This document shows positions 11,439-11,900 of a stretch of DNA of 64,000 bases, in pieces. How positions within the stretch are numbered: the stretch's first letter is position 1; each line of letters begins with the position of its first letter. The translations under genes and the position numbers were made by a program. Under the pieces are notes generated by a model. It did not search any database, had not been told where the DNA came from, and saw only the letters and a list, made by a program, of their open reading frames with translations. Source of the stretch: Escherichia phage vB_Eco-B1.1; sequence record ON871820, one strand, 5' to 3'.

Positions 11439-11900
11439 ATGATTATTAATGAAAGCTCTTGGCACTATAAATTATTCAAAATGTTTAATGATGAATGGAA
11501 ATGACCTAAGACACTATGCGCGTATTTTTGGTCTATTGTTATTCCTACATTTTTCGTTTCTTTTTTCGGATGCACTATACTCGCAGGTCTAACTATCATC
11601 TGTGCAGAAATCATACAGAAATGGCTTATTTTTGGTAGTTTATGGACTCTTATTCCATCAGCATTTATACTTGCTATTTTGCTTGTTTTACTTATTATCG
11701 GTTCATTTGTTATTCCTGCACAACTGCATGAAAAATATAAAGATTATAAATGGAAAAAGGATTATGCTTTACATGTAGAAAATATTGATAGGGCGTATAA
11801 AGGTTTACCTCCTATTCAACCCAAGAAATCTATTATCGTCGAATTTTTAAAAGCGCGTAAAGCTAAAGTATGTCCTGTTATTGAATATAAGGCTGAATGA
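11439..11900 (+). CDS. membrane protein ORF interrupted by in-frame TGA at 11502-11504 (readthrough candidate or pseudogene)
   Basis: ATG 11439 with SD; 21 codons, TGA-C, then ~130 open hydrophobic codons in the same frame with no ATG. Confidence 0.4.

Follow-up and report, generated by a model that had tools for sequence, protein, structure and literature searches.

The locus described here raises the question of whether a frame interrupted by a single stop codon close to its start is a gene that has recently been destroyed, a gene that is still expressed through its stop, or a pair of unrelated small genes. It is located in a stretch of 64,000 nucleotides from Escherichia phage vB_Eco-B1.1 (sequence record ON871820), hereafter referred to as the window, which comes from a Tequatrovirus (T4-like phage) and runs in the orientation opposite to that of the T4 map. 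Over 25 kb, several E. coli phages share ~96-97% identity with the window, and none in the collection is identical to it. According to the initial annotation, an ATG preceded by the Shine-Dalgarno sequence AAGGA opens a frame that hits TGA, with C as the next base, after 21 codons and then continues for ~130 codons devoid of ATG, either as a fresh nonsense pseudogene or as the source of a low-level readthrough product. The coordinates of these elements proved correct (Table 1), and the frame past the premature stop comprises exactly 131 further open codons, in which Met is indeed absent, up to the natural stop.

Table 1. Features of the membrane-protein locus and its immediate neighbours (positions are those of the window).
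Feature	Position	Strand	Remarks
mobD.1-like gene, intact, with y05I-like N and C domains	10915..11436	+	upstream neighbour
Shine-Dalgarno sequence AAGGA of the membrane-protein gene	11429..11433	+	5 nt before the ATG; read from the sequence
Codons 1-21, MIINESSWHYKLFKMFNDEWK	11439..11501	+	N-terminus of the 153-aa protein; S7-W8-H9 motif, near-invariant in the family
Premature opal stop TGA, codon 22; C 11505 next	11502..11504	+	from the ortholog alignment
Codons 23-153, expected to be untranslated save for leak	11505..11897	+	from translation, hydropathy, the AF2 model and phrog_944
TTG-initiated 73-aa ORF	11679..11900	+	without upstream Shine-Dalgarno sequence; begins within the second transmembrane helix
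Natural stop TGA of the membrane-protein gene	11898..11900	+	overlaps the nrdC.11 start (ATG 11897 or 11900)
nrdC.11, intact, RlaP-type nucleotidyltransferase	11897..12910	+	downstream neighbour; own AAGG at 11886-11889

The TAA of the upstream mobD.1-like gene (11434-11436) is located between AAGGA and ATG 11439. The AAGGA sequence is unchanged in phages HY01 and ime09, and the orthologs are annotated with a start at the equivalent of ATG 11439. At the 3' end, the overlap of the natural stop with the start of nrdC.11, which in the HY01 annotation corresponds to window position 11900, is typical of arrangements seen in translational coupling. An alternative-frame ORF of 47 aa (11449-11592, +1 relative to the gene) overlaps the 5' end of the gene. 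From the base composition of the window (34% GC), the chance probability of a stop-free run of 131 codons is ~2-4e-5, and on the non-coding strand of the window 6 of 3,981 stop-free runs reach at least 131 codons; regardless of this value, the question of chance is settled by homology.

Several lines of evidence bear on whether the parts before and after the stop belong together. The conserved N-terminal motif NSWHYK lies wholly before the premature stop, with the near-invariant residues S7, W8 and H9, and the invariant residues C27, Y29, K143, C145 and P146 lie after it; since conserved motifs are found on both sides, the two parts constitute one gene. An independent start of the downstream part, which would have spoken against the reading of an interrupted gene, was sought and found in none of the orthologs, and distant members of the family align from residue 1-3, so that this reading stands. 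Among the intact orthologs, the pairwise dN/dS values are 0.13-0.19, and the variable sites at codon positions 1, 2 and 3 number 20, 8 and 39, respectively, with a clear excess at the third position. As judged from these substitution patterns, the intact gene is under purifying selection and is hence a real gene.

The only in-frame ATG, GTG or TTG that follows the premature stop is the TTG at 11679, as had been noted from the outset. Reinitiation past the stop can be rejected, given the lack of any in-frame ATG or GTG and of a Shine-Dalgarno sequence before this TTG, and a start at the TTG itself is rejected as well, since the protein would then lack both its conserved N-terminal part and its first transmembrane helix. 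The 73-aa ORF is the remnant that a gene caller would report and not an independent gene. Calls of exactly this kind exist in OK148441.1 (L012, 2265-2486) and KX130864.1 (L018, 2265-2486), where 73-aa TTG-start proteins are placed on intact 153-aa frames; because the full frames are intact, we regard these calls as mis-annotations, and the idea that they mark further nonsense alleles was rejected. A protein family with 73 positions, phrog_22816, matches the TTG ORF and is probably an artefact built from such short calls.

What has been interrupted is a member of a large family of small phage proteins. The repaired 153-aa protein matches phrog_944 with E = 1.2e-49 over residues 1-152, its full-length cluster at 90% contains 543 member sequences, and an exhaustive search returned homologs in 343 representative clusters, mostly of 130-160 aa. 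Intact orthologs, for example those of HY01 (AHK10948.1) and ime09 (AEK12358.1), bear names such as "signal-peptide domain-containing protein" or "membrane protein", or the note "RB69ORF104c". In an alignment of 50 sequences (A4), the five residues named above are invariant, and L26 and A139 are nearly invariant along with S7, W8 and H9. The motifs of the repaired protein are NSWHYK, LCxYFW and KxCPxIE(Y/F), the last of which is part of a conserved KAxKxKxCPxIE(Y/F) motif in the basic tail. No Pfam family scored above the cut-off for the repaired protein.

The description of the downstream frame as strongly hydrophobic turned out to be accurate for residues 26-95 and not for the 58 residues that follow, which form a basic, soluble tail with 14 K/R and a net charge of +6. 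The AF2 model calculated from the 50-sequence alignment (mean pLDDT 90.3) comprises a strand (2-4), a helix (8-16), two long helices (26-61 and 68-91), further helices at 95-121 and 132-142, and a C-terminal strand (149-151). The two long helices coincide with the hydrophobic core and are predicted to be transmembrane; the 153-aa protein is predicted to reside in the inner membrane, with its N-terminus and basic C-terminal tail in the cytoplasm. A PDB fold search with the model gave no informative match, and the matches in BFVD were limited to uncharacterised proteins from large myoviruses that infect Vibrio, Pectobacterium and Acinetobacter. It is tempting to speculate that the two invariant Cys residues and the near-invariant His might form a metal or redox site.

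The initial annotation had suggested looking in the orthologs for a sense codon where the window has its stop. This comparison returned Arg throughout. In both HY01 and ime09 the position of the window's TGA is occupied by CGA, the difference being one C>T at 11502, and HY01 is 98.9% identical to the window in nucleotides over the 462-nt gene and 99.3% over a 701-nt region. We drew 14 intact orthologs from GenBank phages, IMG/VR, ENA and Logan assemblies, and a divergent 157-aa allele was read alongside them. The orthologs have the same locus, the same length of 462 nt, the same start and the same stop, at 91-99% nucleotide identity, and their codon 22, read at the DNA level, is CGA in all except one, which has CGG (13/14 and 1/14). 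The divergent allele (L020, ~55% amino acid identity) likewise encodes Arg at this position, and the motif in which Arg22 is embedded, RPKTLCAYFW, is invariant in the 14 intact orthologs and in L020. These alignments show that the TGA at 11502-11504 arose from the Arg codon CGA, to all appearances through a single C>T transition.

The nonsense codon itself was found nowhere else. A 61-mer centred on the TGA matches no phage record; when the query was made to end on the mutant T, 20 records were identical to it over the preceding 99 nt, and none of the best 60 reached the T. Three matches of a degenerate 20-mer in IMG/VR were considered as further copies of the TGA allele and rejected, all of them being chance hits in unrelated sequence. 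Contigs that share the window's mobD.1 protein have CGA or CGG throughout, with no TGA among them. The exact 73-aa remnant is encoded only on a 543-bp ENA metagenome scaffold, whose allele is another one: codons 12 and 20 are stops there, and codon 22 is still CGA. Among the phage records and IMG/VR contigs searched, the TGA allele thus appears private to the window.

The rest of the copy is in good order. Apart from the stop, it differs from HY01 by three synonymous substitutions and one non-synonymous substitution, none of them damaging, and at the non-synonymous site it is the window that matches the remaining orthologs. Because only these four other positions differ from the nearest relative, the nonsense mutation must be considered recent. 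When ~90 genes of PP355091.1 were compared with positions 1-49.7 kb of the window (tblastn), an internal stop was detected only in the membrane-protein gene, and the other flags concerned presence or absence of genes, mostly mobile endonuclease-like ORFs. The suggestion of a fresh nonsense pseudogene is therefore supported by the Arg codon in the orthologs, by the otherwise undamaged copy and by an allele that is unmatched elsewhere.

We propose that the locus very probably represents a recent opal nonsense allele, which makes an accessory gene null or strongly hypomorphic. According to this scenario, a C>T transition at 11502 would have converted Arg codon 22 from CGA to TGA, ribosomes initiating at ATG 11439 would release a 21-residue peptide, and the last 131 codons would be reached only by ribosomes in which a near-cognate tRNA, chiefly tRNA-Trp, misreads the UGA. 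The misreading would be unprogrammed, at a level set by the RF2 variant of the host, and no sequence element seems to favour readthrough beyond the weak UGA-C context. The premature stop could affect nrdC.11 by polarity or lost coupling; any translational coupling would be lost, and the gene would keep its own ribosome-binding site. The knock-out as such is an ordinary one and not a programmed recoding signal, and we infer that the T at 11502 belongs to the phage genome and is no base-call error, that readthrough is infrequent, and that the phage can do without the membrane protein.

Such an allele has familiar counterparts. Spontaneous opal alleles of non-essential T-even genes, with CGA changed to TGA, are known from classical T4 genetics, and they resemble the window allele in the C>T change at an Arg CGA codon, in the dispensability of the gene, in the intact remainder of the frame and in a residual leak that would be set by host RF2 and tRNA-Trp. 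Except that the window allele was found in a genome sequence and not selected in the laboratory, there is no substantial difference between them.

The closest competitor of this explanation, which partly coincides with it, is an allele that is leaky to a useful degree: UGA-C would be misread as Trp at ~1% or more, and the resulting W22 protein would suffice for function, which would make the allele a hypomorph and not a pseudogene. In older work, UGA followed by C counts as the weakest stop signal of E. coli. Premature TGA codons have been surveyed in E. coli K-12, in which no other stop leaks as much as TGA and Trp is the main amino acid inserted; a detectable product was obtained from 14 of 40 premature TGAs, and readthrough at hotspots amounts to 0.7-6% (PMC11126739). 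The base that follows the stop modulates the efficiency, and products of UGA readthrough that appear with the weak RF2 of K-12 are lacking when the more active RF2 variant of E. coli B is present (PMC5373646). Since readthrough of premature TGAs in K-12 reaches up to a few per cent, the window allele may be leaky and not null, and Trp22 might be tolerated because position 22 is variable across the wider family, where the 50-sequence alignment shows R, V, T, M, I, A and Q. On the other hand, Arg22 is invariant in all 15 of the close homologs read, and the RF2 of most natural E. coli isolates is of the E. coli B type, i.e. the one for which such products are absent. In addition, the 86 nt that begin with the stop form no stabler fold than shuffled sequences do (z = 0.26), which argues against a stimulatory structure downstream; the stop is not conserved in the relatives, which suggests that there has been no selection for the leak; and a membrane protein present at 1% or less of its normal dose is unlikely to equal the wild type. 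We consider this possibility rather unlikely, and the weight that we give to it overlaps with that of the main reading. Of the earlier suggestion of low-level readthrough, an unprogrammed basal leak is what survives; the programmed version finds a stop that is not conserved, no RNA structure and no match in Rfam (searched over 11200-12100).

The TGA could also be an artefact of sequencing or assembly, or a minority variant of the lysate, in which case the majority genome would carry CGA and an intact gene. That the change affects a single base and is unique among the databases searched speaks for an error, yet it concerns a substituted base, a kind of error seldom seen in consensus assemblies, and not the length of a homopolymer; moreover, CGA>TGA is a classic spontaneous transition. 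The ~90 genes compared over ~50 kb contain no other internal stop or frameshift, and real inactivating alleles of the same gene exist in the relatives, one of them seen in two independent samples. We find this explanation distinctly unlikely.

These other alleles, verified as DNA against HY01, deserve a closer description. The T2 genome (LC348380.1) has a 2-nt deletion at codon 35, TadeuszReichstein (MZ501106.1) an additional A in an A5 run at codon 105, vB_EcoM_CE1 (ON229909.1) a loss of A from an A5 run at codon 98, and an E. coli-associated contig (JAEJWA010000009.1) an additional T in a T5 run at codon 65, the last of which is also present in a separate SRA run. The four frameshift alleles arose independently, and gene callers turn them into chimeric or truncated proteins. 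In all of them the same accessory gene has been inactivated in Tequatrovirus genomes that are otherwise intact; they are frameshifts, whereas the window allele is a base substitution. In T2, the deletion fuses the 47-aa alternative-frame ORF to the main frame, with a chimeric product of 135 aa as the result, and similar 150-aa products (P0003 and P0005), which as proteins have the N-terminus of this ORF, probably share a fusion origin of the T2 type.

In the divergent 157-aa allele (L020; PP355091.1, 54461-54934, L026), the last 90 nt (L020, 2415-2504) are 95.6% identical in nucleotides, the first ~95 nt are 76% identical, and the part in between gives no blastn alignment, as though recombination had left a mosaic junction within the 3' part of the gene.

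Around 500 phage records match the region around the membrane-protein gene. What lies between mobD.1 and nrdC.11 differs among these phages: T4 has mobD there (NC_000866, 56429-57208), where the window and ~500 other records have the membrane-protein gene. The T4 MobD is a free-standing HNH homing endonuclease (PMC2988022), and T4 deletion mutants for nrdC.11-mobD.3 are viable (PMC9825161). The membrane-protein gene can be regarded as accessory because T4 carries mobD instead and survives the loss of nrdC.11-mobD.3. No terminators were found around the locus, and promoter-like matches there occur at chance level.

Other features of the window are given here for completeness. Upstream of the locus, mobD.1a (10375-10908) and mobD.1 form a tandem of paralogs related to the y05I-like putative transcription factor; PF24449 and PF24448 are confirmed in the window's mobD.1, the corresponding domains of mobD.1a were seen in relatives only, and the protein sequence of the window's mobD.1a has no record in a large collection of gene positions. 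Four ORFs of the window are absent from the equivalent places in PP355091.1, namely a 343-aa ORF between the nrdC.4- and nrdC.3-type genes (17360-18391), a 248-aa ORF ~35% identical to a "mobile endonuclease" (32004-32750), a 295-aa ORF between rpbA and gene 45 (35088-35975) and a 213-aa ORF ~36% identical to a segB-like endonuclease (43086-43727); none of them has a Pfam match at E <= 1e-3.

The recurrence of inactivation invites the view that the loss is selected and not neutral, i.e. that the protein is costly on some hosts or sensed by a defence system and is repeatedly discarded for this reason. The routes would then include nonsense mutations (the window and the metagenome scaffold), frameshifts (the four alleles described above) and replacement by mobD (T4), and the TGA of the window would have served escape or adaptation, with the UGA-C context perhaps keeping the allele leaky. 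In the same part of the genome, the mobD.1 region of T2 (L021) is split into three small ORFs, mobD.1 of TadeuszReichstein (L022) is reduced to its C-terminal domain and adjoins rI.-1, and on one ENA scaffold (L013, 2486-3486) nrdC.11 is split into pieces of 70 and 252 aa. Since the neighbours are damaged too, relaxed selection in a plastic region fits these observations as well as, or better than, selection targeted at the membrane-protein gene, and we regard the latter as very unlikely.

Restoration of the protein by a tRNA of the phage itself would require a mutant that reads UGA, for example a tRNA-Arg changed from UCU to UCA, which is a route to T4 opal suppressors known from the classical literature. 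Relatives do have a tRNA-Arg(UCU), which a single base change would turn into an opal suppressor, and the tRNA cluster of the window's phage is situated just beyond the start of the window, within which no tRNA genes are present. The cluster of HY01, the closest relative, encodes nine tRNAs, none with the UCA anticodon, and an opal suppressor would also lengthen the products of the many genes, of phage and host alike, whose stop is TGA, all of which makes this explanation exceedingly improbable.

Rescue by frameshifting at AAA-TGA was considered as well and rejected: because the downstream part keeps the same frame, a frameshift is no rescue. Programmed UGA readthrough by tRNA-Trp is known in a coliphage, namely at the coat/A1 junction of Qbeta, and the window would depend on the same decoding event, with tRNA-Trp reading the UGA in a few per cent of cases. 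In Qbeta, however, a conserved stop follows a complete protein that is functional by itself, and the extension beyond this stop is essential, whereas the stop of the window is private to one genome and its upstream product of 21 aa, which covers one short strand and one helix from a larger predicted fold, is a piece broken off a conserved domain and not a protein in its own right. Hence regulated readthrough of the Qbeta type or insertion of selenocysteine, which can draw on nothing more than a weak UGA-C context and a long open frame beyond the stop, has a practically negligible chance of being correct, given a stop absent from every relative, orthologs that carry Arg and not Cys or Sec, the fragmentary upstream product, and a downstream region with no hairpin, SECIS-like structure or Rfam family.

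For the annotation of this and related genomes, the consequence of the preferred explanation, a recent opal allele, is that the locus should be described as one 153-codon gene with a premature stop and neither as a 73-aa TTG ORF nor as intergenic space. Beyond annotation, the stop itself has little importance, and nonsense alleles are an ordinary phenomenon. It adds one more independent inactivation of a gene that T-even phages lose readily, and such repeated loss is in keeping with the notion that the mobD/nrdC part of the genome is plastic and dispensable. More interesting than the stop is the family that it interrupts, i.e. the phrog_944-type proteins, which are widespread in large phages and have no Pfam entry. 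A natural null allele, accompanied by the near-isogenic intact copy in HY01, would provide a handy starting point in the search for a phenotype.
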